A stretch of 64,000 nucleotides of DNA. Source: Trypanosoma brucei. Taxonomy: Eukaryota. Below, in pieces: positions 33,668 through 64,000 of the stretch (position 1 is its first letter; each line of letters starts with the position of its first letter). The position numbers and the translations under genes were made by a program. The DNA lies in NCBI GenBank assembly GCA_000002445.1, contig CM000208.1:800001-864000 (forward strand), written 5' to 3'. The notes beneath the pieces are model-generated. The model had not been told where the DNA came from. It ran no database searches and was given only the letters and a program-made list of their open reading frames with translations.

Positions 33668-34114
33668 ATGGCGAAAGGCAGAGACAGTACTGCTCATATG
33701 CGTGAATTTATCAAACGCCTCCGAGCCCGTTCCAACGTTTCTGAAAGTCCTCAGCCGCAAGAAGGGGAAGCGCCGCCCCGTTACGCTCGCTCTGCCATTA
33801 CTGGTGAGGTAAGAGTTGTTGGTCAAAAGGGACCTCTCACAACATCGTTTCCATCACCCCACCGCCGACTGTTGAGTCATGTGGAAAATATAACTGCCAC
33901 CACCACCTCGAAGCCCGAAGAACCTCCGCTGCCTCCTGCGCTTCAAATAGTGCCGGATGCCGCGGAATGGGAGCAGAACACCGGGACAAAACAACAAAGT
34001 TGCAGGGAGAAACCCGTAAACCCGGCAGCAAAGTCGGAGCCTCGACATGGTGCGAAAAAAGTCAGCAAATCAGGGAATGCCAGCGATGTATTGGAGAGAC
34101 ACAAGAAGCGATGA
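33668..34114 (+). CDS. Small low-complexity hypothetical protein (148 aa). Uncertain.
   Basis: ATG-initiated, on the transcribed strand, inside a 4.4-kb gene-poor stretch. The composition is P/E/K/S-rich and no domain is recognisable. No clean poly-Y/AG lies directly upstream. Confidence 0.3.
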   Translation: MAKGRDSTAHMREFIKRLRARSNVSESPQPQEGEAPPRYARSAITGEVRVVGQKGPLTTSFPSPHRRLLSHVENITATTTSKPEEPPLPPALQIVPDAAEWEQNTGTKQQSCREKPVNPAAKSEPRHGAKKVSKSGNASDVLERHKKR

Positions 34115-34405
34115 AATGTCTAAGGTTGCAGCAAGCAGGAAAAAGAAGAAAAGAAAAGAGAAGAAAAGACACGAATGTTGCTCCGCGGCGCGAAAGTCTG
34201 AATATGAAACACATCAAGTATCAGAGTGATATCACAAGTTGGCGGAGTCGGGACTATTAAAGCATTGCTCTACATTTTTTCCCCCTCATCCGTGTTGTTG
34301 TGCCCTCGGTATCTTTTATAACCATTAGCGACAATGTGCGCGTGGGGGCAAATGGGTGGAGGGAAAGAACACGAGTATGTATATTTATATTTATTTATTT
34401 TATTG

Positions 34406-34441
<36 letters not shown>
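34406..34441. repeat. Compound (TA)n(TG)n microsatellite
   Basis: 'atatatatatatatatatatatgtgtgtgtgtgtgtg' within the 32.3-36.7 kb gene-poor stretch. Further (TA)n runs lie at 32726-32745, 33276-33300, 34988-35005 and 36291-36340. Confidence 0.9.
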
Positions 34442-36722
34442 AGGCTTATGTGTGTATATATGCGTGTATATACTCATACGTGTTATTGATAATGATTTTC
34501 CTCTTTTAGTTGTTGCTTTCGCTTAGTGCTGGGTTGGTGGTCAAGGTATTTAACCGTCCGCTCTCGCAGATATTTTTGTTTTTATTTTCAAAGCTGCTAT
34601 GATGTTATTTTTTTTTTTTACCATGTATATATGTATATTTATATCTTCTGTGTTTCTTGCGTCTAAAGCACTCTTTCTCAAACGATATTTTTATTCCCTG
34701 CGCGCATCGTCATTGGTATAATGCTTTCCTTCATTTAGCCTCGGATACTATTGTTTATGAGCACGTGGCAGTATCTTTTTTTTTTTTTACAAAAAGAAAA
34801 AGAAAAAGAGAAAGCAAAGAGATGGTTGGAAGAGAAGGGGAGTAAAAGGGTGTAGAGAGAGAGAAAGAGAGAAATGGACCGAGACTATTAGTTATAATCA
34901 GATGGAGAATTTATTTCATCCTTTTTTTTCTCATTTTTGTACCCCTTCCTGAATGTTATCTTCTAGTCAATGTTTTTTTTTATACAAATATATATATATA
35001 TATATGTATTTATATACGCTTATTTTTACTTTATTTTTCTTTTTGCTAGAATCTTTATTATTATTATTTGTGATTTTATGATGTGTGTCGTTTTTTCTTC
35101 TTTTCTTTTTGCATTTCAGTCGCTATCTTTTCCACGCGGTGGTGTTTGTACATTTTTGTCTGGTGATGCTAAAATACTGAGAATATTTTGTACAACTCGT
35201 CGCCACTCAAAGCTTCATCATGTGTATTGCAATTATTATTTATGCTTTGTCACGCTCTTTTATTATTATTATTCCCACACTATATTAATAAAGAAAAACG
35301 ATTATTTGTTTCTTTTTTTTTAAAAAAAAGCGGAAAAAAAGACAGTTTTTGCGTGCGTTTCCCTTTTTTTTGTTGTTGTTGTTGCTTTGTCATATCATTT
35401 TTTTTGACTACCCTCATTTTTTTTTATTTCTTCTGTTGTATGAGTGAGACAGAGGAGGGTAGTTGTTGCTCTTTTTTGTTTTTTTTCGTTTTCCCTTTCA
35501 CGTGTTGTTATACCTTTCAAGTCCTTTTTTCTTTTTTTTTTTTTAAAGGATAATAAAGGATTTGAGATGATGCTATTTGTATATATTTTCGTATTTGTCT
35601 TCTGTTTTTTTTTCTTTTCAGTTGCTTCAGGGAAGTTCCCCGGATGTGACTGCTGGATTTTCGTCGTAGTCTTTATTATTCCTTTTCCTTTTTCCTCATT
35701 TCCATCCTTCTGTCTCGCAGCATCGGTGATTTAAAAAAAAAAAAGAAATAGCAACCGATAAGTTATGGTGTGAGGGAGATTAGTTAGTGATGGAATGGGG
35801 ACGGGATGTGTTGGAGAAGTGATAATAATAAAAGAAAGAGATTAAATTTAATAAATACAAAAAAAAAAGCGACGGTGCAAGTGTATTCATGTAAAAGTAA
35901 TCCGTATCGCTGTTGGAGACAATATTCTCACCTTTTTTGTCTCCCTTCTTTTTTTTTAAAAAAAAAAACAATATGCTTTAACCATATTCCCACTAAATCA
36001 ATGACTAACTGACTACCTGTTTGTTTCCTCCTCATTTTTGCTATACGCATGTTTCCCTTCTTTTCTTTTCTCTTTTCCTTTCCTTTTTGTTTTGATTTAT
36101 TCTCTACTCACCATTCAGGTTCTTTGCATATAGATGTTCATATAAGGAATCTGATATGTGGTCAGGTAATTTTGACTAATGGTAGTAACATCCACATTTT
36201 ATGGACTCTTTCTTAATTATTTTTTTCTTTAAATAGTTTAACTACTCTGCGAGTGGACATTGCGAGAATTATTGAACCCTTGGCTAATAGATATATATTA
36301 TATGTATAAATAATATATATATATATATAATATATATTCATGTAATTTGTTTCGCCTGTGTGTTGCACTGGTACAGACCACCATAACTGATGTTACTACT
36401 AATGACAGTATTATTGTTGTCTCTACCTGCCACCTTTTTTTCTTTCTTTTTTTTTAAATACATTTTTTTTTTCCTGCACAGTCTTTTGACTCACGCGGAT
36501 ACGTGGTGAGGCATACAAGAGGAAGTTTTTTTTTTTAAAAAAAAGGGAGGAGGAAACTTGGAAGACGAAGGAAGGAGCTAAGAGTAGGCGAGGGAAGTAG
36601 AATTTGAGGCGTGTACGTATATTTGTGTGTGACAATAATAACATCGATATAAAAGGAAAACGAGTTGGAAACGGTTACGAGTAGGTTGACAGGAACAGGC
36701 GGAGGTCAAGTGATTAAGCTGT

Positions 36723-36751
36723 GTTTTTTTTTTTTTACACGCAACATAATA
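36723..36751 (+). promoter_or_regulatory. T16 poly-pyrimidine run immediately 5' of the kinase ATG
   Basis: 'gtgtttttttttttttttacacgcaacataata' precedes ATG 36752. The GTG/TTG-initiated extension in the ORF track spans this tract. Confidence 0.4.
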
Positions 36752-37873
36752 ATGAACAGTAATGCTCCGCTTATCTTTGATGTGCCTCCTGTGTTTAAGG
36801 TGGAGTCCATAATTGGGCAAGGCTCATACGGTGTGGTTTGCAAGGCGTTGTATGGAATTGATCAAATTGCCATCAAGAAAATACCGAACTACACGAAAAG
36901 TGACGAGACCGCGCGGCGTGTGTTACGTGAAATAGAAATTTTACAGAACTTACAGTTCTGCGAGCAGGTCGTAGAGTGCCGACTTCTTTTTCGGCCGACT
37001 AGTCGTGAAAAGGATGTGTATGTCGTAATGAACTTTCTTCCTTCTGACCTCTCCTCCGTTATCAAGAACAAATCCGTCCCGCTCAATGAGAAAATTATCT
37101 GCTACATTACATGTCAACTTTTACTAGCTCTTCGTGCCATGCACCGCTGTAATGTACTTCACCGTGACTTGTCTCCACGTAACATCCTCGTCAATCACGA
37201 TTCGCAGGTATTTGTGTGTGATTTCGGTCTCAGTCGTTTCTTTGATCCCGACGAGCAATTGTCATTTGGTGTTGTAACGCAGTGGTATCGGGCGCCAGAG
37301 ATTATTTTGGATGCCGAGTACGACGCTGCCAATGATATTTGGGGCGTTGGCGTTATCGTGTGTGAGTTGGTGCTCAGACGTCATCTTTTCCCTGGAAAGT
37401 GGAACGACTCTGCGGATCAACTTAATCACATCTTCCACCTTGTTGGCACCCCGCCAGCATCTGTGTTTGAGCAGGGGCAACCGTTTGCTAGGGCTTCTGC
37501 GAATGCAAGAAAATATGCTCTTTCTGTTGTGGAGAAGAAACCGTGCTCTCCGATGTTGCAGGAGTTGCTGAGAAGTTCACCACTTTTTCAGAGCAATGAG
37601 GTGGAGTCGCATTCGGTGATTGACCTTGCCGTAAAGCTTCTTTCATTTAACCCACGTGACAGACCGACAGCTGATGATGCGTTGCGTCACCCATGGTTTG
37701 ATCAGTTTCGCTCCTTCATTGGTGAAATGATTGAGACTCAGGACGGTCACGGTGTGGGGACTATGCAACTTTCAGCCTGTGGTACACTTCCTGTGGAGGA
37801 TGTGGTGAAGAGGATCGAGGAACTCGTTCCAATTTTCTCACAAGACCTACTAGTTAGCGATGATGAGGATTGA
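36752..37873 (+). CDS. CMGC-group (MAPK/CDK-like) serine/threonine protein kinase with a non-canonical catalytic loop
   Basis: Track start 36665 is TTG. The first ATG, 36752, follows a T16 tract. Gly-loop 'IGQGSYGVVCKA', 'IAIKKI', catalytic loop 'HRDLSPRNILV', 'VCDFGLSRFF', and 'QWYRAPEIIL' (CMGC-type) and 'DIWGVGVIVCEL' are present. No TxY dual-phosphorylation motif. Confidence 0.8.
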   Translation: MNSNAPLIFDVPPVFKVESIIGQGSYGVVCKALYGIDQIAIKKIPNYTKSDETARRVLREIEILQNLQFCEQVVECRLLFRPTSREKDVYVVMNFLPSDLSSVIKNKSVPLNEKIICYITCQLLLALRAMHRCNVLHRDLSPRNILVNHDSQVFVCDFGLSRFFDPDEQLSFGVVTQWYRAPEIILDAEYDAANDIWGVGVIVCELVLRRHLFPGKWNDSADQLNHIFHLVGTPPASVFEQGQPFARASANARKYALSVVEKKPCSPMLQELLRSSPLFQSNEVESHSVIDLAVKLLSFNPRDRPTADDALRHPWFDQFRSFIGEMIETQDGHGVGTMQLSACGTLPVEDVVKRIEELVPIFSQDLLVSDDED

Positions 37874-40585: not shown

Positions 40586-42697
40586 ATGGGTGGCTGCGTT
40601 GCATCCCTTATTGAGAGCAGAAACACAAAATCTCTTGTCGATAACGATGACATTCTGCAATACAACAAACTGCCATGCCAAATCCGTGTAGTTGCGGGAA
40701 CAGAACGGGAGGATGCATCACCGGTCTACCGTAAGTTTGACGTTACTGATGAGGATTTCGAAAAGATGTCACATGATGCGTACCATGGGGAGCCACTAAT
40801 ACAACTAATCCGTGAGATTTGTGGGCTACGGGGGGAGAAGGTTGCAATGGCCTACCGCAATATGCAGCGGGTAGAGAGAAATGTGGTGAAGGATGCGAGC
40901 GGCAAGTCAAAAACGATGGATATGTATGTTTTCTCACCGGGGCGCCGAAATATAAGCTATAAGCAGCTTTGGGAAACCGTCGAAAATTTTTCTAAAGGTC
41001 TCTGTGAAATTGGGCTTCAGGAGCGACAATGCCTTGCTCTGTTTGAAGAGACGCGTTGGGAGTGGTATGCGTCGTTGCTTTCCGCCTGGTGCCACAACAT
41101 GATTGTGGCAACAGTGTACGCCAATCTGGGTGAGGATGCACTCCGTTACGCGTTAAGGGAAGCTCAATGCGGCTGCATCATCTGTAACGGGAAGAATGTC
41201 CCCGTACTCCTTGACAAAGTGAAGTTGAAAGAAATGGGAAATCCAGTGGTTATTTACTTGGATGATTTACCCACTAACGTAGATATTATGGACCTAAGGG
41301 TGTACAAATGGTCTACCGTGGTGGAGATGGGTGCGAAGAGCGAAAAGGCTCAGTTAAACATCCCAACTTGTGAAAATTGTGATGATACCGCTCTTATCAT
41401 GTACACAAGCGGCACTACGGGGGATCCAAAGGGTGTAGTGCACACACACGGAAGCCTTGCTAGTGGCGTCTATGCGCTCAGCATTCGACTGTCCGAAGTA
41501 TTTGGTGACCCACGAGATGACGAAACGTACTGCTCGTACCTTCCTTTGGCCCACATTATGGAACTGGCTGTGCTGTCAATCCTTATGCTCAGGGGATGCC
41601 TCATTGGTTTCGGTTCTCCTCGAACAATTACCAACACTTTTTCTAAACCACACGGTGATTTGGTCGAATATCGACCGTTTGTTCTCTCTGCTGTCCCGCG
41701 TGTGTTCGATACCATTAAAAAAAATGTTGAGGCAATGCTACCCAGTCCCGGGTCAATAAAGCGTACAGTCTTTGAAAGGGGATATCAGGCCCGTCTCAAG
41801 GCTCTGAGGGATGGGAAGGAGACTCCCTACCTCAATGAAAAAGTTTTCAATAAGGTCCGTCAGGCAACAGGTGGGAATGTGCGGCTTTACTTTTCTGGTG
41901 GGGCGCCACTGTCTCCAGCTACTCAGGAGTTCATCAACGTGGTACTGGGGACTGTTATTCAGGGTTGGGGCCTAACGGAGACTGTGTGTTGTGGAGGGAC
42001 TCAGTTCCCAGGCAGCCTCGAGTCCGAAAGTATTGGTCGGATGATCGACACTGTGGAGTTGCGCCTTCTCGACACTCCCGAATATCGGCATACGGATAAA
42101 CCAGAACCTCGTGGAGAAATTTTGTTGCGCGGGCCATTCCTCTTTAAAGAGTATTACAAACAGAAGGCCCTGACGGAGGAGGTTATTGATTCCGAGGGAT
42201 GGTTCCACACGGGTGATGTTGGCTGCGTTTCGAAAAACGGTACCTTGCGCATCATTGGTCGCGTGAAGGCCCTTGTAAAGAATTCCAACGGCGAGTATTT
42301 GGCTTTGGAGTCCTTGGAGGCCACTTACGGGCAAAACAAGTTGTGCACACCAAACGGCGTGTGTGTGCTCGTTCATCCACAGCGCAGTTATATAGCTGCA
42401 CTGGCCCTCACAACAGAGCAACTTATCATGCCCTTCGCAAAGGAGCATAAAATCCGCGGAACATATCCCGAGATACTCGAAAATGTTGAACTCCGCAAGA
42501 AGGTGTGTGAATCATTTCAAGAAACTGGAAGGGCCGCTGGAAAGAAAAGCTTCGAAATTGTGCGGGACGTGCGCCTACTGAGTGATGAATGGACCCCAGA
42601 AAATGGGGTTCTAACAGCGGCCGCCAAGTTGAAGAGGCGAATCATTGATGAACGTTACAAAGAACTGATCGAAGAGATATTCCGCAATGATGTTTGA
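40586..42697 (+). CDS. Long-chain fatty acyl-CoA synthetase (ANL superfamily), with an N-terminal MGGC acylation signal
   Basis: True ATG. AMP-binding motif 'YTSGTTGDPKGVVHTHGS', 'GWGLTET', 'WFHTGDVG', 'GRVKALVKNSNGEYL' and C-terminal 'AAAKLKRRII' are typical of eukaryotic LACS. The N-terminus is 'MGGCVAS'. Confidence 0.85.
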   Translation: MGGCVASLIESRNTKSLVDNDDILQYNKLPCQIRVVAGTEREDASPVYRKFDVTDEDFEKMSHDAYHGEPLIQLIREICGLRGEKVAMAYRNMQRVERNVVKDASGKSKTMDMYVFSPGRRNISYKQLWETVENFSKGLCEIGLQERQCLALFEETRWEWYASLLSAWCHNMIVATVYANLGEDALRYALREAQCGCIICNGKNVPVLLDKVKLKEMGNPVVIYLDDLPTNVDIMDLRVYKWSTVVEMGAKSEKAQLNIPTCENCDDTALIMYTSGTTGDPKGVVHTHGSLASGVYALSIRLSEVFGDPRDDETYCSYLPLAHIMELAVLSILMLRGCLIGFGSPRTITNTFSKPHGDLVEYRPFVLSAVPRVFDTIKKNVEAMLPSPGSIKRTVFERGYQARLKALRDGKETPYLNEKVFNKVRQATGGNVRLYFSGGAPLSPATQEFINVVLGTVIQGWGLTETVCCGGTQFPGSLESESIGRMIDTVELRLLDTPEYRHTDKPEPRGEILLRGPFLFKEYYKQKALTEEVIDSEGWFHTGDVGCVSKNGTLRIIGRVKALVKNSNGEYLALESLEATYGQNKLCTPNGVCVLVHPQRSYIAALALTTEQLIMPFAKEHKIRGTYPEILENVELRKKVCESFQETGRAAGKKSFEIVRDVRLLSDEWTPENGVLTAAAKLKRRIIDERYKELIEEIFRNDV

Positions 42698-48518: not shown

Positions 48519-50144
48519 ATGACAGAGGTAGCCGTTGATTGTTTCCCGACTCCAACCGTCAGCAGCCACAGTTTATCCAACGAAGTGAACAACAACGGGC
48601 GTGGTGGAGTGTCCTCTGGTGGCATGGTAGCGGTGGAAGACAAAGTGGCGCTGTTGCTGGCCGGTGCGAGGAAGTTGCTTGAGGAACCAACACCATCATT
48701 ATCGTGTCATGCCGAAGAGGTGTTGCCATGTGATGATGAGGAGGAGTGCCGACGCCGCTTGCGGTTTCTAGAGGCAGCCCATGCTTTTGTGGAGCAACAA
48801 CATGTAACTCAGAGGTATTTGAAGCGGGCTGTGGTTTCCTCACGATCAATAGGTGTGAACGCATGGACCAGCGAACAGACGCGAGGGGGCTTGCCTCACT
48901 GTTCAGCACGCGACTTGCCAGCAGTCGCTGTTATGATAGATGGGGAGCTAACTGATTGTGAAACTGAGGAGTGCCCAACAAGACACAACTTGTGCTTTTC
49001 CACTGTCTTACACATAAAGCCACGCGGTTTGTGGGCGAAGGACGCGGCTGTGCGGCGTCAGGGTCAGTACTGTAAGCAGTGCTTGGATCCGTTACACAGG
49101 TATAAGATCCCTCTTCCTGTGTGGAAGGAGGCTCGTTTTTGTTATTTCACTGGGATGTACTACTGTAATATGTGTAACTCTAGCCGCTATTCGGTGATTC
49201 CTGCGTTTGTTTTGAAGAAGTGGGATTTTAAACCGCGACCAGTGTGCAACGACGCGTATGAATTCTTGAAGTATCACCATAAGCATCCAATTTATCGCGT
49301 GTGTGCTCTTAATCCACGACTATACGAGCGAGTGGCACTGCTGCGGGTGGCCCGGAACCTGCGATCGCAGTTGATGAAATTGCGTGATGTGGGCATGAAG
49401 TGTGCTGTGCTGCGTCACCTTCTCTACCTTCACGACGCTCCTGTCGAACTTGAAAGGGACAGCAATCGTCGCCCCTCCAGAACCACAACCAACGCCTCAG
49501 CTACCAACCATGTAGCCACCTTTGTTGCCAGTGATGGTGATGCCGCCTCGTTTGCCGCTGATTGCTACGTGCCACGCACCCGGCGGTATTTATTGGAGAA
49601 CTGTGAACTTTGGTCATTATCTGACCTTGAGGATGTACGCCGTGGGCAGTTGTTGTTCCGTCAGGAGAGCGCTGGGCGCACAATGGCTTTTATAAAAGAT
49701 ACTTCCCTTATCTCGCAGTTGGCGGCATACAGCAAAGGTACAGCCGCTTTGTGTGGTGAATGCGATACGACTGTTTACCTCAAGCAAGTGCGATCTCGAA
49801 TTTTACGGCACATTCTTGTACACAGTTGTGCGACTTGCCTTGTTAATAGTGTTGACGTGTGTAGCATCTGTTGCCCTGCGGAGGTGGCTCAAAAGTTAGA
49901 GTGCATTAATGAGCAAACTCGAGGAGGTACACCGTTCGGAACCTGTGAGCATTTTTTTGGCTCGTTGATCAAAGATGTTTCAGTGTTGCCTTTTCTTGTT
50001 TATGTTTTCGACACATTGCATGTGTTCTGTTGCACCGGGTGTGGTAGTGCTTATCACAGACGCTGTTTTAAGGAAATGCAACATACCAAGGGCGATTTAA
50101 CATGCTGCCCGCGCTGCAGAGCAACACAGTTGATAAAAGAGTGA
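48519..50144 (+). CDS. Cysteine-rich protein with a Rubicon-homology (RH/DUF4206, DEF8/PLEKHM1/Rubicon-type) zinc-binding domain
   Basis: True ATG. 'QYCKQCLDPLHRYKIPLPVWKEARFCYFTGMYYCNMCNSSRYSVIPAFVLKKWDFKPRPVCNDAYEFL' parallels the Rubicon RH core '[45 protein letters not shown]'. Further C/H clusters 'CGECDTTVYL', 'CATCLVNSVDVCSICC' and 'CCTGCGSAYHRRCF...CCPRCRATQ' complete a multi-zinc module. Confidence 0.7.
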   Translation: MTEVAVDCFPTPTVSSHSLSNEVNNNGRGGVSSGGMVAVEDKVALLLAGARKLLEEPTPSLSCHAEEVLPCDDEEECRRRLRFLEAAHAFVEQQHVTQRYLKRAVVSSRSIGVNAWTSEQTRGGLPHCSARDLPAVAVMIDGELTDCETEECPTRHNLCFSTVLHIKPRGLWAKDAAVRRQGQYCKQCLDPLHRYKIPLPVWKEARFCYFTGMYYCNMCNSSRYSVIPAFVLKKWDFKPRPVCNDAYEFLKYHHKHPIYRVCALNPRLYERVALLRVARNLRSQLMKLRDVGMKCAVLRHLLYLHDAPVELERDSNRRPSRTTTNASATNHVATFVASDGDAASFAADCYVPRTRRYLLENCELWSLSDLEDVRRGQLLFRQESAGRTMAFIKDTSLISQLAAYSKGTAALCGECDTTVYLKQVRSRILRHILVHSCATCLVNSVDVCSICCPAEVAQKLECINEQTRGGTPFGTCEHFFGSLIKDVSVLPFLVYVFDTLHVFCCTGCGSAYHRRCFKEMQHTKGDLTCCPRCRATQLIKE

Positions 50145-51198: not shown

Positions 51199-54039
51199 AT
51201 GAGTACCGAGAACGAGGGCGAATCAAAAGAAAACCCCTCGTATCTCACTGTAGAATTAGAGCATGTCGGCCATGTCTCCATCGATGCAATTGAGCACCAC
51301 TACATGGAGTTGCAAAAGGAACTAGCGATGGAGCCACATTTGCGACCACTGCGTGAGGAATATGAGAAGATCCACCGCCTCCTCCGTAAAAGTCACGATG
51401 GGGAGAAGCGCTTGATGGCAAAGATAAAGGAATTAGATCATGACTTGATTACACATGCGGCGAACGTTGAAAGTGCGCTGAAACTCGCTCGGCAAGATGA
51501 GGACGTGATTGAGGCCCTGAGGAGGGAAATAGAAAAGGCCTGGTCACTTGCTGACAGCGCGCATGCTCGTGAAAAGGAAACGCGGGAACAAATACAGGAG
51601 TTGCGCCAGCAGGTGGTGCGTCTTAATGGGTTAGTGGATAAAAACACAAGCAGTACATTGGGACAGGAAAACTTTCTCCGCGATCTTATTAAGGCGAAGA
51701 AAGAGTTTGAAAACGAGCGTCTAATGGCACAAGCTAAGGCGGAGCGGCTCGTGGATGAACGGCTATTTGCTCAGAGGAAGATGCACAAACTGCGAGAGGA
51801 TAGTGAATGTGTGCGGCATAGCCTTGAGAACACGCTCAAGAACTATGAAGGCTGTCTACGTAACCTCTCCGATACCAAACGGGATCGCGAGAGTCTGGAG
51901 CAGCAGGTGCGGGAGTACCGTGTAGAAGCGGATGAACATTTGAAAGAGATAGCAAGCGTCCGTCAATCGGTGGCCGAGTTAGCAAAAGAGGAGGAAAAGC
52001 TGAAAGCACTTGCGCTTTCAGAACGGGATTCTGTGGGGCAATTAGCTAAGCAATTGGAAGAACAACAGGACCGATTTAAGAAAGAGGCTGACAAACTTGC
52101 CGCTGTTGAGGCGCACAATGCAGAAATGAAGCAGGAGATACCAAAGATGAGAATGACGCTAAAGGGCCGGCATGCAGAGGTGGAGCGACTTGCCTTATCC
52201 TTACGAAAGGCTCGTAAAGGAGCCGGGGTCCAGCAGACCGAAATAGACAAGCAGATGCAGACGAGGGCTTCGCTGATGGAACAAACGGAGAAAATGCACA
52301 CCGCTATTGAAGAGCTTCTGCGTACATTAGACGACCACGTCAAAGCGTTGCATGATGAAGAGGTCCGATTGAAGGGAGCCATGCCCATAAAAACAAAACT
52401 CCTCACTGAAAATTCGCGCGTTGATAGTGAGAAGGCTATGATGGAGGGCCAGCGGATGCTGGAAGAGGGTAAGCGACGTAACTTAACCCAACAACTAGAA
52501 AAACTTCTTCGGGATAACGAAACAATGCGAAAGAAAATATTTGAACTGGAACAAAATCAGGCGAAAATCCTTGACAATGGACAGCGAGAGGCTTTGCAGT
52601 ATCATCGGGTGCTTGAGCAAACACGTAAGCAACAAGGACAGGCTAAGTTACTGCAGCAGCAGTTGGAGGACAATGAAAAGCGTCTTAAAGCGCAACAGGA
52701 TTTGCTTGACCGAGTCTCCGCAGACCGCGCACGAACGGAAAAGCGGTTGAAGGAAAGTGAACTTGAGTGTTCTGGGTTGAAGCAGCGGTATAATCACAAT
52801 GGGGAGGAGATTCAGTTGTTGAAGATGCAAATTATAGGCAAGGAGGGCGCACTTTGCCGCATTCATATGGTACGCAAGCAACTTCAGCGTGACATCGCCA
52901 ATGCTGAGGAGCGCGCAAGCCACCTGAAGGAAGACGGTACGAGCGCTACCAACCGCTACGAGACGCTAAAGGGAGAGGTAAAGCAACTCAGTCACTTAAT
53001 AGCCGAGTGTGACGCAGAGAAGAGTAAGTACCAATCTAAATTTGCTGCACTTGTTAACGAACGGAATGTACTTGCTACCCAGTTGGTTCGTCGTAACGAA
53101 GAGCTGCGCCTCCTCCACAGCAAAATACGTTTGCAGGAGTGTAGTATTGAAAAAGGTGCGGAGGACTACAACAAGCGTGTGCGGGCTGTGATGGGGAAGC
53201 GAAGTGAACTTGAAGAGCTGCGACTGCGTTGTCGAGTTGCCCTTGCCCGCATGCTTCACGCGGAAAAACTGAGACGGCGAAAACAAAAAATCGAGCGTGA
53301 CCTCTTTACTGAAAAGCGTCGCTCTCGTGCCCTCGCTGACGAGCTTCAACGTCCTGTAAATGTGCACCGATGGCGGCGACTTGAAGGCAATGCCCCCGAG
53401 ATTCTCGACGGCATTTACAAAGTTCACACTCTAGAACGACAGATACTTAAGAAACAAGATTTGCTCGTGGAAAAGACAAAACAATTGGCTGCTCGCAATG
53501 CAGAATATGAGACTGTTAGGAAAAAGCTTGCCGAACTTCAAGGCCCGGAGGTAGCGGGGGAGTTGAGCTTATATGACGAAAACTTGCAATGTCGTCGCGA
53601 ACAAATACGGGGTCTTGACACCGAACTTCAGGAGGTTGAACAGCACGTGGACGTAGTGGCTGAGGAAGTGAAGCAACTGACAGTAGAGTTATGTGAGGTA
53701 AAGCGGCGGTATTATAATGCGAAGCATAAGAATGACCTGCTCCGCCGTGAGCAAGGTGCTTTCCGCGCCATGTGGGGTGGGTCTTCAGCGGTCGCTAGGA
53801 CTGCACTCGCCGCAATCGAAAACGCTTCGGAGCGCCGGCAGCTCCAGCAACAAGGATCAATTTCCAGTCGTCGGCAACCGCTATGGCGCACGCGGGCGCA
53901 AAAGCGCCGCGAGCAAATTAAACAGGAGGAACAAATCGTTCAGGTACTATCGACTGGTGCACCAGCGCCAAGTTTTCCTCTTCAAGTCCCACCAGGTCAG
54001 CGCATTTTCTTGGGGGGTGGTTTTGCGCTAACTCGGTGA
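51199..54039 (+). CDS. Large coiled-coil protein (946 aa), likely cytoskeletal or flagellar
   Basis: True ATG. Almost the entire ORF is E/K/R/L/Q-rich heptad repeats. There is no enzymatic motif. Confidence 0.65.
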   Translation: MSTENEGESKENPSYLTVELEHVGHVSIDAIEHHYMELQKELAMEPHLRPLREEYEKIHRLLRKSHDGEKRLMAKIKELDHDLITHAANVESALKLARQDEDVIEALRREIEKAWSLADSAHAREKETREQIQELRQQVVRLNGLVDKNTSSTLGQENFLRDLIKAKKEFENERLMAQAKAERLVDERLFAQRKMHKLREDSECVRHSLENTLKNYEGCLRNLSDTKRDRESLEQQVREYRVEADEHLKEIASVRQSVAELAKEEEKLKALALSERDSVGQLAKQLEEQQDRFKKEADKLAAVEAHNAEMKQEIPKMRMTLKGRHAEVERLALSLRKARKGAGVQQTEIDKQMQTRASLMEQTEKMHTAIEELLRTLDDHVKALHDEEVRLKGAMPIKTKLLTENSRVDSEKAMMEGQRMLEEGKRRNLTQQLEKLLRDNETMRKKIFELEQNQAKILDNGQREALQYHRVLEQTRKQQGQAKLLQQQLEDNEKRLKAQQDLLDRVSADRARTEKRLKESELECSGLKQRYNHNGEEIQLLKMQIIGKEGALCRIHMVRKQLQRDIANAEERASHLKEDGTSATNRYETLKGEVKQLSHLIAECDAEKSKYQSKFAALVNERNVLATQLVRRNEELRLLHSKIRLQECSIEKGAEDYNKRVRAVMGKRSELEELRLRCRVALARMLHAEKLRRRKQKIERDLFTEKRRSRALADELQRPVNVHRWRRLEGNAPEILDGIYKVHTLERQILKKQDLLVEKTKQLAARNAEYETVRKKLAELQGPEVAGELSLYDENLQCRREQIRGLDTELQEVEQHVDVVAEEVKQLTVELCEVKRRYYNAKHKNDLLRREQGAFRAMWGGSSAVARTALAAIENASERRQLQQQGSISSRRQPLWRTRAQKRREQIKQEEQIVQVLSTGAPAPSFPLQVPPGQRIFLGGGFALTR

Positions 54040-56520: not shown

Positions 56521-56870
56521 ATGTCGAAGTAGAAGGGGAAATGGGAGTAATGGTAGCGCTATCCTCCACTCCCCTGCCTCGTTCGCGCTCACTTCATATC
56601 CAATTCGCACATTGTGTGCGGTTGTATCATACCATTCCCCCCGTATTAAAGTTTCAGCGATACGTCATTGGAGTTTCGGTTCTGCAGACACTGATAACGC
56701 CAGCTCTCTTAGTACCCTTTCTCCCTTCTAATATATGGTGTTCATGCCACTTACTGGCGTTCCCGCCTCTTTTATGCTGCATTAAAAAAAGAAAACTATT
56801 CGTTACCTCCATCTCAATGCACGTTGGTGCGTGTGTGAAAAATCGTTTGTGTTCAGGTTAAGTTGTGTGT

Positions 56871-57920
56871 ATGCTTCTTATAGTGTTCGTAGTCGGATTT
56901 CTGCTCCTTCTTACTGCGTTCGTTGCACTGCAACTGCGGAGGAGTCAACAGTTCCCGACATTTAGCGATGCAACCCCATCTCGAGTTGCGGCGAGGCGTT
57001 CAGAAACGCGACGGAGTCAATACAATGACGGAGATTATTGGAGTAATGAAAGTTCTGATGAGGGTAGCGACGACGATGATAATGATGACTGTGAAGTAGG
57101 CCACAAACGTGAAGAGAGGCGTAAGCTGCGCGGTGGAACCAGTGGCAGCGCCGGACCATTGCGGCACCGCCGCACGAGGCGCGGTGCAGGGAATGCTGCT
57201 GAGGCAGACGGGGACGGTGAGGAAGATAAAAATGGTTCTCAGACGAAATTATCTCGATTACAAAGAAAGAAACAAGAAAAAGAGAGAGAACGACAGGAGC
57301 GGCAGCAGGCGCAGGAAGCACTGCTAGAGAATCGGCGAGTGAAGCAGGAGGAGGAGCAGCGGCAACAGAAAGACCGCGAGCGTGAAGAGAGGGAGCGAGA
57401 GATTGCCGAAGAAGCAGCACTGCAGGAGTTGCGCGAGGAAAAAAAGCGTCAAGAAGATGAGGAGTATGCAAAGTGGGTTGAAGGCATTGGGGTGGTAGAG
57501 CGCGGTGAAATTGGAGACGAGGAGCGAAAGAAGCATGACAATCTTGTCAAGTACTTAATCACCATGGCGGGTAACGGCGGTGAGCGCCAACAGCAGCGGG
57601 TGATTGATGCAGAAAACTTTGGTGAGGGTGAGAAGGTCGGTGACGAGACAATAACAAGGGGTACCGAGTCAAGCAGCCGTGGAAATATACTGATTCTCAA
57701 CGACGTCGCACGAACGCATGGGTTGTCAGTGGAAGTCACTGTTCAGGTGATAGAAAAGCTTTTGGAGGACGGTGTTATCAGCGGTGTTTTTGATGACCGT
57801 GGAAAGTTTGTTATGCTTTCCGAGGAGCACTATAAGCAAATCGCAGAGTTTGTTAAACTCCGCGGCCGCGTTTCGATGAAGGAGCTTGCACGAGAGTGTA
57901 ACAGGATAATCATGTTGTGA
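56871..57920 (+). CDS. DDRGK1: DDRGK domain-containing protein 1 (DDRGK1/UFBP1) homologue, UFMylation pathway
   Basis: Track start 56865 is GTG and the ATG is at 56871. The N-terminal TM 'LLIVFVVGFLLLLTAFVALQL' is followed by a long E/R/K/Q-rich charged region. The C-terminus carries the eponymous 'GVFDDRGKFVMLSEEHYKQIAEFVKLRGRVSMKELARECN' (DDRGK motif plus winged-helix/PCI-like region). Confidence 0.8.
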   Translation: MLLIVFVVGFLLLLTAFVALQLRRSQQFPTFSDATPSRVAARRSETRRSQYNDGDYWSNESSDEGSDDDDNDDCEVGHKREERRKLRGGTSGSAGPLRHRRTRRGAGNAAEADGDGEEDKNGSQTKLSRLQRKKQEKERERQERQQAQEALLENRRVKQEEEQRQQKDREREEREREIAEEAALQELREEKKRQEDEEYAKWVEGIGVVERGEIGDEERKKHDNLVKYLITMAGNGGERQQQRVIDAENFGEGEKVGDETITRGTESSSRGNILILNDVARTHGLSVEVTVQVIEKLLEDGVISGVFDDRGKFVMLSEEHYKQIAEFVKLRGRVSMKELARECNRIIML

Positions 57921-58528: not shown

Positions 58529-61204
58529 ATGTCCTCACAGGACAGTGAAAGCTGGGGGAATTCGAGACAACATTATCAGTATTCGGATGCTTCCGAGGAG
58601 CATAGGCCAGAGGCGACAAAATTAAAATCTGAATGTTTTCAAAACGCTGGTCGCACCTCTCCAAATCGTCGCCGTGACTCCCCAGCGATACAGCAGGAAA
58701 GTAGTGACTTTGCGACAACATCAGATTCGCCTGTGCCTTGCCACTACAGCCAACGAGGGCCTGCAAGTCAAAACGCACAGCAGAAGGGGAAGGATAGAGG
58801 TGATGTTTTTTGCTCGACGGTTACGTCTTCAGACCTGTTTCCCACTGTTGAACTCGGCCCACGGATGCTTCCGACTAACTCCACGTCAATGAAAGGAGGA
58901 CGTTACGCCGCAGGCGACAGGTTACCCCAGACGCAGGAAACAGATAAAACTGACAAACCTGTACGTAACAGGTCTGAGCGCTCCGAAGGAACACCTCTTC
59001 CCAACTGTGGAACCGCACTTCGCGATGGTTCAAGACATTCTCATTCGCCAGCGAGTTCCTGCAGAGGGAACGACAGCTTAGTAACAAACGGGACTGCTAG
59101 CCAGAGAGAAACAAATGAAGAATCGTGCGATGTGTGTGGCAGCTGCTCAACACACTACGTGAGCGTTAGTCTGGGGTTGAGTGAGTGGGAGACGCTTTCT
59201 CCAAATCAAATAAAACTGCGGCAGTGTTTTGATGCGCCTATTGATTCGATCGCTGTGCCCTCTAGCGAAACGCACCGTTCATTAGCACATGAACAGCAGC
59301 GACAGCTACTGGAAACGATTATGCAAAAGCATTCAAGGAAACGGATCAAGAGGGTGACGGATTATATCCTTGGGCCCATCTGTGGTGAGGGTACATTAAG
59401 CACTGTTCGAGACGCGATTAACATATCATCAAACAATGTTGATCCGTTTCGGTTTCAACGTGTAGCCATCAAGTGCTATAAACAATCCGATTCTAAACTT
59501 AGCGAAGGGGCAGGCAGCTCTGATTGTTCACAACTGTCTTCACTGGCGTCTGCAACGAGGCGTCAGCAGGACGAGCTGCAGCGTTTGCGTGAGGCTGAGA
59601 AACGAAATTTGCAGTGCTTCTACTCCACAAATATTGTCCGCAGTATTGACGTCTTCTCGCATGAGGGGAAGCAGTACATCGTGCTACCTGCGGCTATTTG
59701 TAACTTGGAACAACTGGTGCAACTCGCCAAATGCCAGAACCGTTGTGCTTCTTGTGATTCAGTGAGAGGCAAACGAAATATGATTCCATCTTCAAAGGAT
59801 GGAGTTGATGGCAGATTTGAATTGATGCCCTCTCTGGGGAAACCAGCAGGAAAGTTGCCCCAAAATGATGTCAGCCTCTGCACAGGCGCTGCGAGTTTGC
59901 AAAAAATGTCCCCATATAGGAAAGTTACCTCACTTTTTGCGGCGGAGGTGGTGAGGAGCATTATGAACCAACTGCTTCGCGGAGTTGCATATTTACACCG
60001 TCAGGGCGTAGCTCACAATGACCTGAAACCGCAAAACATACTTCTGTTTGCCGATGGCTTGGTAAAGATAGGCGATTTGGCGAGCGTGTCTGTGAACTAC
60101 ACTGGTCATGGAACTCCAATGTACTTGTCTCCAGAGATCTGTAGATATTTTTATGATGCGGGGAATGAGACGAACGGTAGGGTTGCAGTGGTGGATGCCC
60201 TCAAGAACGACATGTGGGGGTGCGGCGCCATCCTTTACTATCTGTTGACGGGGAACACCCTGTGGGAGGACGGAGCGAACTGCCAGAACGTATATCAATT
60301 ATATCGTATAATTGCGGAGCGGAACACGCCTGTTAGCCTTTCTCATATTAATATACCTGCGGAAACCGAGGATGAACTGATATCCCGTCTTACAGAGTCA
60401 GAGAATATTTCTTTTAGGGCCACGGGTGGGTTGCGTCGCCCAACCGCTTTTCCACACACATCTCTTTTACACTTGGCGGCGGGTTTGTTGGACGTCAATC
60501 CCGCTACGCGATTAACTGCTGAGGAGGCTGTTCGACACCCATCGCTGCAAGCCCCTCCGGTAGATGATGTGCATGATGCCTTTCCAACTGATATGACACA
60601 AGGGGATGTGATGAAGGTGATGTTGGAGTCGCCGTATTACCAGCAGCTCATTAAGTGGGATCGGGAACGACATTTACAGTTTGCAGCGGAATGTTCCCAT
60701 GTTTTGGGTTTGCAGATACCAGAGGAGATATGCGTTTCAGCTCAAAAGCGTGCGGCCGATGGTTGTGGCATGGAGGCGGATGTGACGGACCCGCTGCTGA
60801 GATTACCAAGTTCAATTTACCGTTTAGTGGGGACTGTAAACCCTTCACTTTTCCTCCCCACGGATGAGTTTCATCACTACTTGAGGAAGTTGAAGGTGCC
60901 AAACTATGATGTATCGTCTCTAAGGGCAAATCCCTCTGCTGTGAAGATGATGGAGGATTATCTTCATACCGTGATGATGGAGTGCGGCTACACCGGAAGC
61001 GTCAATACACGGGAGCGGAGCGGGTCGAAAGAAGACCAAAACGGCATAAAGCTTTCGACAAGTCAGCTGACAACACGCTCCAGGGAGGACACGTCGCATG
61101 GTTTGGCCACTTTTAAAGACGATGATCAACCAGAAACTTTGGATCGTGTCTTAACTGACATGCCAAGTGACGGTCGCCCTAACTTCTGCTGCATTATCAT
61201 GTGA
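58529..61204 (+). CDS. Divergent serine/threonine protein kinase (NEK-like features) with a long S-rich N-terminal extension and non-canonical HND / DLA motifs
   Basis: True ATG. The kinase core is present: 'GPICGEGTLSTV' (Gly loop), 'VAIKCYK', 'VAHNDLKPQNILL' (HRD replaced by HND), 'VKIGDLASVS' (DFG replaced by DLA) and 'GTPMYLSPEI' (NEK-like APE region), then 'DMWGCGAILYYLLTG'. Low-complexity inserts occur between subdomains. Confidence 0.75.
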   Translation: MSSQDSESWGNSRQHYQYSDASEEHRPEATKLKSECFQNAGRTSPNRRRDSPAIQQESSDFATTSDSPVPCHYSQRGPASQNAQQKGKDRGDVFCSTVTSSDLFPTVELGPRMLPTNSTSMKGGRYAAGDRLPQTQETDKTDKPVRNRSERSEGTPLPNCGTALRDGSRHSHSPASSCRGNDSLVTNGTASQRETNEESCDVCGSCSTHYVSVSLGLSEWETLSPNQIKLRQCFDAPIDSIAVPSSETHRSLAHEQQRQLLETIMQKHSRKRIKRVTDYILGPICGEGTLSTVRDAINISSNNVDPFRFQRVAIKCYKQSDSKLSEGAGSSDCSQLSSLASATRRQQDELQRLREAEKRNLQCFYSTNIVRSIDVFSHEGKQYIVLPAAICNLEQLVQLAKCQNRCASCDSVRGKRNMIPSSKDGVDGRFELMPSLGKPAGKLPQNDVSLCTGAASLQKMSPYRKVTSLFAAEVVRSIMNQLLRGVAYLHRQGVAHNDLKPQNILLFADGLVKIGDLASVSVNYTGHGTPMYLSPEICRYFYDAGNETNGRVAVVDALKNDMWGCGAILYYLLTGNTLWEDGANCQNVYQLYRIIAERNTPVSLSHINIPAETEDELISRLTESENISFRATGGLRRPTAFPHTSLLHLAAGLLDVNPATRLTAEEAVRHPSLQAPPVDDVHDAFPTDMTQGDVMKVMLESPYYQQLIKWDRERHLQFAAECSHVLGLQIPEEICVSAQKRAADGCGMEADVTDPLLRLPSSIYRLVGTVNPSLFLPTDEFHHYLRKLKVPNYDVSSLRANPSAVKMMEDYLHTVMMECGYTGSVNTRERSGSKEDQNGIKLSTSQLTTRSREDTSHGLATFKDDDQPETLDRVLTDMPSDGRPNFCCIIM

Positions 61205-61305: not shown

Positions 61306-61332
<27 letters not shown>
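61306..61332. repeat. (TA)n microsatellite
   Basis: 'atatatatatatatatatatatatat' downstream of the kinase stop. Confidence 0.9.
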
Positions 61333-61336
<4 letters not shown>

Positions 61337-64000
61337 TTGTGTCTACGAGGTTCTGTTTTCTTAGCATCCCCTTCTCATCTTTGTGTTTGATTTAGCAGTT
61401 TTATGCTGGTGGTGCAGTTTTGGTACGTCTTTTTCTTCCATCTGTTATGTGAGCCATGTGAGAGTGAAAGGGATCGGAATTTATTTTGCAGGAATTGTTG
61501 CAGATACGAAGCGGCTAAACGTTGATACGTTACGGTGTGTTGGTTGTAAAATGAGGGGTAGCTGCTGATCTTCACTTGTGCATGCTTCGTTGCTTGCGCC
61601 CTTTTTTTTCTTTTTTCCCACAAATACTTTATGTTTCCTACTTTTAGTGGGTGCATCGCCACCGAGGTGCATTTTGCAAAGAGAAAAAGAAAAGACTGTA
61701 AAGTGGCTGTGCCTCACTTTTAAGTGGGAGCAAAATGGTTTGTTGTTAGTTAATGTACATGCTGAGGGAACTGTGTAGATGAGGGGGGAAATAGTCACAT
61801 GAGTAGGTTGTAATAACGGAACTAAGTTTTTGTAAACTCTTGTGGCGTTAGGGTAGAAAGAGAGGGGGAAATAAAGAATTACTTAAAATAATACAACTTT
61901 AGAGCACCATATACCAAGAATCCACAACTAGGGAAGATGCTTATTTAGTTTCCTTTTTTTTTAAATTTGCGCATGTGTTTGCTCTATTGATTTGAAGGAA
62001 GAAGTGAGGAAATGTATGCTAATAAATTTGTTACCTATGAATGTATGGAGGAGGGGTGTGGGGAGAGAAAATGCGTAAGTATTGTTCGCTCGTGGTATCG
62101 AGTACAGCACCGTGGTAGGCATCCTTCTATCGTGTTTATACTCGTAAAACTTATTTACTTTTTTGTTTATATATTTTGCTTATTGTTTTTTTTTAAAATA
62201 TTCTTCCTACTTCATCTCCGATATGTCATAACAATGAATCAGTGGAGGTAGGACTACCATATGCGCATACTCATGCAACCGTAGTACATATATGTAATTA
62301 TAAGTATGATATAATACTATTAACTATTTCACGCATAACTCGTGCAGTTGGTCACAATAATCTTCCAGACCATTTTTTTATTTTTCTTTTCAAATAGCCT
62401 TACCACTCGCGACATCCACTGAGACATCGAGCCAACTATTATTGTTATTATTTTTATCATAAACGTTACTATATTTATTCATCTACTTGGTTTGATTTCT
62501 TTCAGTTTTGATTCATTATGTTTATTGCTTTGGTGGATAGGTAGCATTTGCCTTACCTCCTTGCATATATGTTTAATGAAAAGAAAAAATAAAAGAAAAA
62601 AAAGCAACTGGAAGCTCCACCATTCAAATATCTCTTCCATCTTTTCTTTTCTGATGGTAATTTTATATTTAAAAAAAATGTGTTTTCTCCCTCCCTCCCC
62701 CTTTCCCTTTTTCTAGCAATCGATGTTTCTTCTCTTCTCTTTTCTTTTTTTTGTTTTTACCCGTCTCTGATTTTTTTTTTTTGAGGGAAAAATTTAGGGT
62801 GTCGGTATATTTACTCCCCTCTTCTCTCCCTTCCTTTCCTTTCCTTTCTTTCATTCTTTTGTTTTACAGGTGATCAACATAAAAAAATAGGACGATTTAG
62901 AAGTTTTAATGAGTCTGTGTCCAATATTTTTATTGGAGATTTGCTGAAGTGGAAATACCAAATCACCCTTGTGAATGAGAGAAAAATGGCAAAATCAAAT
63001 ACAAAAAAGAAGAAAAAGCCAAAATCAAATACAACAAGGAATTAAATTTATTTGTTTATTTAAAGACTATATGGCTTCTGGTCCATGTGTCAGTTAAGGC
63101 GTGTGAGGAAATATTAAATTGTGATGTATGATATCACATTATGGTGCGTGCGAACTGGACCATGTTATGCTCATTTTCTTTTATTTTTAATGAGGGGAGA
63201 TCATTTAATACTCCATTAATTTTCCTCAGTGATGTAATTTGCGTGGGCAGCTCTGCTTTATGTCGTGTTTATCATGGAAGCGTGTGTTTGTGTGTGGGAC
63301 ACAACGACAAAATATGATCCGTGTGGTTAAATACTGATACAAATGTATGCACATATGTAATATCGTTACTTAAAGTTGTGATAATTTAGTTGGAGTTTAG
63401 TAGAGATTTATTTCTTTCGTTTTCTCCCCCTTCATCTGGTGTGTTCCTGTTGTTGTTTCCCTATTTTTTTTTGTGTGGTAGCAGGCATATTCCAGCCCTT
63501 TTATTCTTTATTTTTATGTCGGAGAACCGCTTACTGGTGTCTGTTTTTTTTTAATTTTTAAATTTCGCACACACTATTGTTATCTAAGTTAATTCTTACC
63601 TCCTTGCTCTCTTTATTAATTTAATTTTTTTTTTGTGTCGAAAAGCGGTGAAACCGTCTGGAGTCATAAAGATGCATCTGCAAGCCCGGAAGTATTCCCT
63701 TTCTTCTCCGTATGTTTCTTGTTGTTCGTTTTTCTGCTGCTGCTGTTGCTTACTGGAAAGAGGGAAAAGAAAATTTAAAAAAATTACTCTTAACCTACTT
63801 TGGGGAAATAAGCAAACTAACTATACAGAGAAAGCGAAGAAGAAGAAATACAAAGAGGGAAAAAGAAAAGGGGGGGAAAAAAAAGAGGTGACAAGTGCGT
63901 CAAAAAGGGATGTGCCAAACTTTAACTACGGACGGTCTGTCAGGTGAGGTGAGGCCCGCTTTCACTGAAGAGGAACAAAATCCCAACAGATGCAGCGATG

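Follow-up and report, generated by a model that had tools for sequence, protein, structure and literature searches.

The 64,000-nucleotide stretch of the Trypanosoma brucei genome analysed here (the window; positions 800,001 to 864,000 of contig CM000208.1) contains, at 58529-61204 on the + strand, a complete open reading frame (ORF), Tb927.10.3340, which starts with ATG, includes its stop codon and encodes a protein kinase of 891 amino acids with a computed mass of 98.7 kDa. We propose, with a probability of about 0.6, that this kinase is a divergent, farnesylated, non-RD orthologue of LKB1 and, by inference, an activator of AMPK-family kinases. The product is identical to T. brucei brucei TREU927 EAN77757.1/XP_822585.1/UniProt Q38BR3, the older identifier of the gene is Tb10.70.4100, and the ORF contains the sequences of both RNA interference (RNAi) primers that Jones et al. 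(2014) give for Tb927.10.3340 (58991-59010, +, and 59401-59420, -). All features of the protein described below lie on the + strand.

To delimit the family to which Tb927.10.3340 belongs, we used a kinase-domain profile to search 1.84 billion representative proteins exhaustively with HMMER, which gave about 427,000 kinase matches. The family is sharply bounded, with about 30 representatives scoring between 216 and 626 bits and the next scores at or below 190 bits. Members were found in T. b. gambiense, T. equiperdum, T. congolense, T. cruzi, T. rangeli, T. melophagium, Leptomonas pyrrhocoris (1773 aa) and Trypanoplasma (Cryptobia) borreli, and in a transcript filed under 'Colponema vietnamica'. 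Comparison of the single sequence with the PDB sequences gave generic CMGC/CAMK matches, STK11 (LKB1) among them. When the family profile was compared with all PDB sequences, human STK11 (8vsu_C) came first with 114.9 bits (E 3.7e-32), followed by CIPK23 with 101.1 bits and CaMKII with about 92, and neither CaMKK nor NEK appeared among the top 60 matches. The STK11 alignment reaches into a basic motif directly before the kinase domain (RKRIKRV, residues 270-276, 59336-59356; family pattern rrKriKrvsnYilGPllGEG), in which K271 and K274 are invariant across the family. This motif aligns with RRKRAKL of human LKB1 and with RKRWKVV of the barnacle protein, whose STK11 reads RKRWKVVGRY.

The nearest neighbours of the family among the kinase matches point in the same direction. 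Proteins with several kinase domains (P0101-P0122) stood above single-domain proteins at the top of the full-sequence ranking because domain scores add up, and the matches were re-ranked by best domain. Scored with an LKB1 profile, 21 of the roughly 60 single-kinase-domain non-family proteins in the top 150 matches fell into the LKB1 class, and a chytrid protein (P0201), first filed as 'other' but nested in the LKB1 clade, is a 22nd. These neighbours include a barnacle 'STK11' with HND, DLG and a CaaX box, an Andalucia godoyi 'stk11 homolog' (HGD, CSVM) and proteins from Pharyngomonas (CVIS), Stygiella (HQD, CSIQ) and the euglenids Entosiphon (HKD, CIVM) and Rhabdomonas (HKD). A profile of the Discoba LKB1s matched STK11 in the PDB at 418 bits versus 264 for the next family, and the Discoba proteins are therefore genuine LKB1s. 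When either the single protein or the kinase-domain profile was used in word-prefiltered searches, the orthologues were followed by MAPK4, ATG1 and bacterial Stk1; this list was set aside for classification because it had been shaped by the prefilter and not by relatedness.

We then placed the family in neighbour-joining (NJ) trees built from 260 trimmed columns with 18 family members, 22 LKB1-class proteins and the 26 closest other kinases (300 replicates). The family forms a clade with 100% support on a long branch. With all members included, the family and LKB1 were grouped against the closest non-LKB1 kinases with a bootstrap of 81% by the exact and 93% by the loose count, and the support was 94-98% when only slowly evolving members were used and 77-88% with Trypanosoma alone. 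Two motifs are shared between the family and LKB1: the activation segment of basal family members reads GTPAFxSPQIAxG versus GSPAFQSPQIAAG in Discoba LKB1, and their alpha-G motif reads YQLYrxIA (YxLYxxIA) versus YKLFENIG in LKB1. A profile search with the Discoba LKB1s turned up no canonical kinetoplastid LKB1, although this search was word-prefiltered and hence is no proof of absence. The presence of a canonical CaaX-bearing LKB1 in euglenids, with none turned up in kinetoplastids, fits a replacement by the Tb927.10.3340 family.

The C terminus of the protein carries the feature that we consider most informative and that an earlier note on this DNA, made from the sequence alone, had overlooked. 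The last five residues, CCIIM (61187-61201), comprise a CaaX box, C888-I-I-M, and an upstream cysteine, C887. All family members with a complete sequence have a CaaX box at their end, with an invariant cysteine at position -4 (CIIM, CGLM, CGLV, CSVM, CRVM, CRIM, CHMM, CSIS and others), and a second cysteine lies one to three residues upstream of it across the family. A cysteine at -4 was found in 16 of 119 non-family top matches, nearly all of them LKB1-class, and 14 of the 22 LKB1-class neighbours have a CaaX box; farnesylation of LKB1 is established (PMC4814216). The farnesyltransferase of T. brucei prefers Met or Gln at X and rejects Ser, Thr, Ala and Cys, and the organism is without PGGT-I (PMC3206815). 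The CIIM box, with Met at X, thus suits the T. brucei enzyme, and C888 is predicted to be farnesylated, while C887 is a candidate palmitoylation site. In Leishmania, N-terminally tagged LmxM.03.0350 gave a signal in the cytoplasm plus endomembrane, which is consistent with prenylation.

Taken together, the case for LKB1 is made by the PDB rank, the excess of LKB1-class proteins among the nearest neighbours, the NJ bootstraps, the rare CaaX box, the pre-kinase motif and the distribution of canonical LKB1 between euglenids and kinetoplastids, signals that are each weak to moderate and that point one way. Several observations weigh against it. The mean identity between the family and LKB1 is 31.6% versus 30.0% between the family and its other top matches, and the kinases most identical to the T. 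brucei protein itself are not LKB1s. Against the Discoba LKB1 profile the family scores 98-232 bits (the T. brucei protein 123.9), whereas with the same profile true LKB1s reach 327-612 bits (415 for the human protein) and CAMK-like kinases of other kinds at most 260; hhalign favours LKB1 marginally, by 520 to 506. The tree was built by NJ with a simple distance, contains long branches and drew its outgroups from the top matches only. Several Discoba LKB1s have HRD and/or DFG, so that DLG and a non-Arg HxD are not universal in LKB1, and a non-RD loop with DLG is therefore typical of LKB1 without defining it. Most of the activation-loop stretch that in human LKB1 is reportedly contacted by MO25 (2WTK) is missing. 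The lack of fitness loss upon RNAi in T. brucei and the viable L. mexicana null are compatible with an LKB1 function and lend it no positive support, and the AMPK role of Tb927.10.3340 is suggested by analogy with LKB1. It is because of the thin signal at the level of the domain that our confidence in the LKB1 assignment is held where it is.

The alternative that survives best is that Tb927.10.3340 is a kinetoplastid-specific orphan CAMK-like kinase of non-LKB1 descent, which gained its CaaX box, non-RD loop and DLG independently and has substrates unrelated to AMPK. It would agree with the kinome studies, in which Parsons et al. (2005) paired Tb10.70.4100 with LmjF03.0350 and two T. cruzi alleles under 'Unique', Jones et al. 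(2014) labelled Tb927.10.3340 'Orphan' (and not 'Pseudo Orphan') and Baker et al. labelled LmxM.03.0350 'Orphan'. It would also account for LKB1-profile scores that lie below those of unrelated CAMKs, for raw identities and hhalign scores that hardly favour LKB1, and for an activation segment, inserts and a C-terminal helical region that have no counterpart in LKB1, and lineage-specific gain of a CaaX box is known in other T. brucei proteins, e.g., KinesinCaaX. Such a descent would, however, leave unexplained why STK11 leads the PDB matches by 14 bits, why LKB1-class proteins are so strongly enriched in the nearest neighbours among about 427,000 kinase matches, and why NJ support for the LKB1 grouping reaches 77-98%. 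A CaaX box is moreover rare in kinases and typical of LKB1, the Discoba LKB1s included, and the pre-kinase basic motif and SPQIAxG are common to the family and LKB1. We therefore regard an independent origin as possible but on balance doubtful.

A second alternative concerns catalysis. The earlier note had described a kinase reading VAHNDLKPQN, KIGDLAS and GTPMYLSPE at 58529-61204, and this description was confirmed by a Pfam Pkinase match (E 2e-30) and by the positions of the motifs. The G-loop, GPICGEGTLSTV, occupies residues 282-293, VAIK residues 312-315, the alpha-C stretch EAEKRNLQ residues 355-362 and GTPMYLSPE residues 528-536. The catalytic loop HNDLKPQN (residues 496-503, 60014-60037) has Asn in place of the HRD Arg, DLA stands in place of DFG (residues 516-518, 60074-60082), and the activation segment DLASVSVNYTGHGTPMYLSPE (60074-60136) is 21 residues long and falls about 9 residues short of its human LKB1 counterpart. 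K315, E357, D498, K500, N503 and D516 are invariant over about 30 kinetoplastid family representatives, so that, as the note had said, neither the catalytic Asp nor that of DFG has been lost. HND is found in every one of them, which makes the family non-RD throughout. The conservation that the note had proposed to check in orthologues therefore holds for HND and does not extend to DLA: most members have DLG, DLA occurs in T. brucei/T. congolense, the T. rangeli group and P0092/P0093, P0091 has DLS and a few bodonid-like sequences have DFG. This distribution implies no fewer than three separate replacements of Gly by Ala or Ser at DFG+2, one each in T. brucei/T. congolense, the T. rangeli group and P0091-P0093. 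HND and DLA are not strain-specific sequencing errors, since TREU927, DAL972 and two T. equiperdum assemblies, four independent assemblies of the T. brucei group, agree on both. These strains differ from one another by 3-19 amino acids, and since nearly all of the differences map to the N-terminal extension, the inserts or the C-terminal linker, purifying selection acts on the catalytic core.

The possibility that HND and DLA abolish or cripple catalysis, leaving a regulated pseudokinase or scaffold that acts by binding partners, was one of two options offered by the earlier note. The Ala in place of the DFG glycine in T. brucei, a Ser at the third glycine of the G-loop, the large disordered regions and the lack of a growth phenotype would all suit it. 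On the other hand, none of the six catalytic residues listed above is lost in about 30 lineages, most orthologues have DLG, the barnacle STK11 has an identical HND, and the strain polymorphisms spare the catalytic core. In the kinome papers the protein is an active orphan and not a pseudokinase, and in Parsons et al. it satisfies the definition of an active eukaryotic protein kinase and stands outside their inactive set. Since all catalytic residues are invariant, a pseudokinase finds no support, and we consider it very unlikely; an atypical active kinase was the better of the two options, and Tb927.10.3340 appears, from its residues, to be a catalytically competent non-RD serine/threonine kinase. 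A third reading, membership of the expanded trypanosomatid NEK family, to which the earlier note had likened the APE region of the protein (GTPMYLSPEI, a superficial match to the NEK motif GTPYYLSPE), is effectively refuted and retains hardly any probability: no NEK is among the top 60 solved structures by single sequence or by profile, where human STK11/LKB1 ranks first for the profile, the kinome tables leave Tb927.10.3340 outside the 20 or so NEKs, and less derived members read the LKB1-like GTPAFxSPQIAxG.

If Tb927.10.3340 is indeed a diverged LKB1, its mode of action may be sketched as follows. As is usual in non-RD kinases such as LKB1, the kinase would be independent of activation-loop phosphorylation, and it may stay in a DFG-in state in which the DFG flip is unimportant, as suggested by the fact that Ala or Ser has been tolerated at DFG+2 more than once. 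A farnesylated C888, perhaps together with a palmitoylated C887, would tether it to a membrane through some 60 residues of disordered linker. Its activity might be sustained either by partners like MO25 and STRAD or by its own C-terminal helices. Its substrates, if it behaves like LKB1, would be the T-loops of AMPK-family (CAMKL) kinases, which would make it a candidate upstream activator of TbAMPK-alpha1. An extended version, which is a good deal more speculative and which we think improbable, holds that kinetoplastids rebuilt LKB1 as a self-contained, dually lipidated membrane kinase in which the C-terminal helices replace STRAD/MO25 and hold a short, phosphorylation-independent activation segment in its active state, and that this kinase is the missing TbAMPK-alpha1 T-loop kinase in slender-to-stumpy quorum sensing and quiescence. 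LKB1 is activated allosterically by the STRAD pseudokinase and the MO25 scaffold; a literature search for MO25 in T. brucei returned nothing relevant.

T. brucei AMPK-alpha1 is phosphorylated on the slender-to-stumpy change and its activity regulates that quiescence, and the reviews consulted name no upstream kinase of T. brucei AMPK. In a 2026 TOR/AMPK survey, whose text gives no call for T. brucei, LKB1 was detected in only 44 of 210 eukaryotes. The Tb927.10.3340 transcript was 17-fold enriched in immunoprecipitates of TbZFP3, a regulator of transmission-stage mRNAs (PMC3326296). In bloodstream forms, Jones et al. (2014) scored the gene as 'No LOF' by RIT-seq and measured a growth ratio of 0.99 in the kinome RNAi screen, and LmxM.03.0350 is dispensable in Leishmania, where the L. 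mexicana null is viable (Baker et al.).

Tb927.10.3340 is thus already known as an annotated gene that was included in kinome-wide screens and whose CaaX box is on record: among the T. brucei CaaX proteins listed in an earlier publication is the entry 'Tb10.70.4100, protein kinase, CIIM, 99', with which the mass of 98.7 kDa and the CIIM ending agree. In the literature searched, kinome papers included, no paper ties Tb927.10.3340 to LKB1 or names a trypanosomatid LKB1. Relative to that literature, the assignment as a diverged, prenylated LKB1 orthologue and the candidacy as an AMPK activator appear to be new. If the assignment is right, it provides a concrete candidate for the activation step of TbAMPK-alpha1, removes one orphan (Tb927.10.3340/LmjF03.0350) from the trypanosomatid kinome and joins energy and differentiation signalling to farnesylation, whose standing as a drug target in T. 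brucei is established (PMC3206815). If it is wrong, a conserved non-RD kinase that is specific to kinetoplastids and predicted to be lipid-anchored remains of some interest. In either case, the lack of a phenotype in culture in both T. brucei and Leishmania limits the immediate value of the kinase as a target.

The N-terminal extension (residues 1-269, 58529-59335) is Ser-rich and poorly conserved, has no Pfam domain match and is essentially unalignable between orthologues. The earlier note had described it as 290 residues long and S/Q-rich; an extension of about 270 residues with 16% Ser is indeed present, and with 7% Gln it is not Q-rich. The kinase domain (residues 277-673, 59357-60547) contains four disordered inserts. 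Insert 1, between VAIK and alpha-C (residues 316-350, 59474-59578), is 26% Ser, has a predicted local distance difference test (pLDDT) score below 50 at 321-335 and is shorter or missing in the bodonid-like members P0004-P0007. Insert 2 (residues 414-461, 59768-59911), which separates alpha-D from alpha-E, is the largest, has a pLDDT below 50 and differs in length and sequence from member to member. The remaining two are found after APE (residues 537-560) and between alpha-G and alpha-H (residues 627-637). Both low-complexity inserts pointed out by the earlier note, after VAIK and after APE, are real; those between alpha-D and alpha-E and between alpha-G and alpha-H had escaped it, as had the CaaX box and a conserved, family-specific helical C-terminal region (residues 686-823, 60584-60997) with a disordered loop at about 739-764. 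This region resembles no known fold and is followed by the non-conserved, disordered linker to the predicted lipid anchor (residues 824-886, 60998-61186; pLDDT about 30-35).

An AlphaFold2 model of residues 266-891, computed from 17 family sequences, has a mean pLDDT of 70.7 and a predicted template modelling score (pTM) of 0.73, with values of 85-97 for pLDDT in the kinase core. Disordered segments in the model are 321-335, 414-461, 627-637, 679-685, 739-764 and 824-891. The pTM of 0.73, reached with 178 of 626 residues disordered, suggests that the C-terminal helices may be held at a fixed position relative to the kinase. In a Foldseek comparison with the PDB, the model matched generic kinases in the active state (pCDK2/cyclin A, CaMKII), a result that cannot tell kinase subfamilies apart.

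The size of the protein varies considerably within the family. Leishmaniinae-type orthologues (P0082-P0094, e.g., Leptomonas pyrrhocoris XP_015652046) are 1,033-2,364 aa long, and huge inserts break their kinase domain into three to four hidden Markov model stretches, with HND, DLG and a SKCLCGLM/V ending retained. P0095, P0097 and P0100, from Logan/ENA/JGI contigs, are short members of 391-705 aa with HND, DLG and a CaaX box and outscore the rest of the family with the LKB1 profile (204-232 bits); they may be transitional between canonical LKB1 and the form found in trypanosomatids. P0099/P0225, filed in EukProt as 'Colponema vietnamica' (an alveolate predator), is a clear family member with HND and DLG and most likely reflects contamination of the transcriptome by kinetoplastid prey, suspected to be a bodonid.

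The genomic surroundings of Tb927.10.3340 are uniform in orientation. All 20 ORFs of at least 250 aa in the window (1-64000) lie on the + strand, as expected of one trypanosomatid polycistronic transcription unit, and a tRNA scan of the window found no tRNA genes. The adjoining upstream gene (56865-57920, +) encodes a DDRGK-domain protein, a component of the UFM1 pathway (Pfam E 4.6e-25), whose middle part is highly charged and rich in Glu, Arg and Lys. Pfam matches identify the ORFs at 30608-32293, 40586-42697, 48519-50144 and 51199-54039 (all +) as an aldehyde dehydrogenase, an AMP-binding enzyme, a Rubicon-homology-domain protein and a CFAP58-like coiled-coil protein, respectively; the first of these we take to be P5C dehydrogenase, Tb927.10.3210. 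An ORF of 402 aa at 36665-37873 (+) is, judging by its position, presumably the MAPK Tb927.10.3230. The G+C content is 0.34-0.35 in 34001-36000 and 62001-64000 versus about 0.47 elsewhere in the window. A perfect (TA)13.5 microsatellite lies at 61306-61332, about 100 bp 3' of the stop codon of the kinase gene and presumably inside its 3' untranslated region.

Among characterized systems, the best match with a solved structure is human/metazoan LKB1 (STK11; PDB 2WTK, 8VSU), the master upstream kinase of AMPK and AMPK-related kinases. Like the kinetoplastid family, LKB1 has a non-RD loop (HKD in human, HND in barnacle) and DLG, a basic motif of the RRKRAK type before the kinase domain, a C-terminal CaaX farnesylation box and similar activation-segment and alpha-G motifs. 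In contrast to human LKB1 with its 433 aa, the trypanosome protein has 891 aa and is about 31-33% identical over the alignable core, and it is set apart by a 270-residue N-terminal extension, four disordered inserts, the helical C-terminal region and the shorter activation segment. The LKB1s of Discoba (Andalucia godoyi, Pharyngomonas, Stygiella, Entosiphon, Rhabdomonas) come from the same supergroup as the family and share with it the CaaX box (CSVM, CVIS, CSIQ, CIVM); their HxD residue is variable (G, Q, K, R), and their motif GSPAFQSPQIAAG is close to GTPAFISPQIANG of basal family members. Unlike the family they are canonical LKB1s of 324-831 aa, mostly with DFG and without the C-terminal helical region.

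The CAMKK kinases (CaMKK1/2; yeast Elm1/Sak1/Tos3) are alternative, CAMK-related upstream kinases that activate AMPK. Unlike the family, they have HRD and DFG and lack a CaaX box, and CaMKK1/2 structures, which rank high among the PDB matches of true LKB1s, are missing from the top 60 of the family profile. T. brucei has four annotated Other/CAMKK genes, which could share an AMPK-activating role. Finally, T. brucei KinesinCaaX (Tb927.10.12440) is listed in the same CaaX catalogue and likewise has a CaaX box ending in Met with a conserved upstream Cys, which is proposed to be palmitoylated. It belongs to an unrelated family, and its farnesylation has been demonstrated, whereas that of Tb927.10.3340 is predicted.

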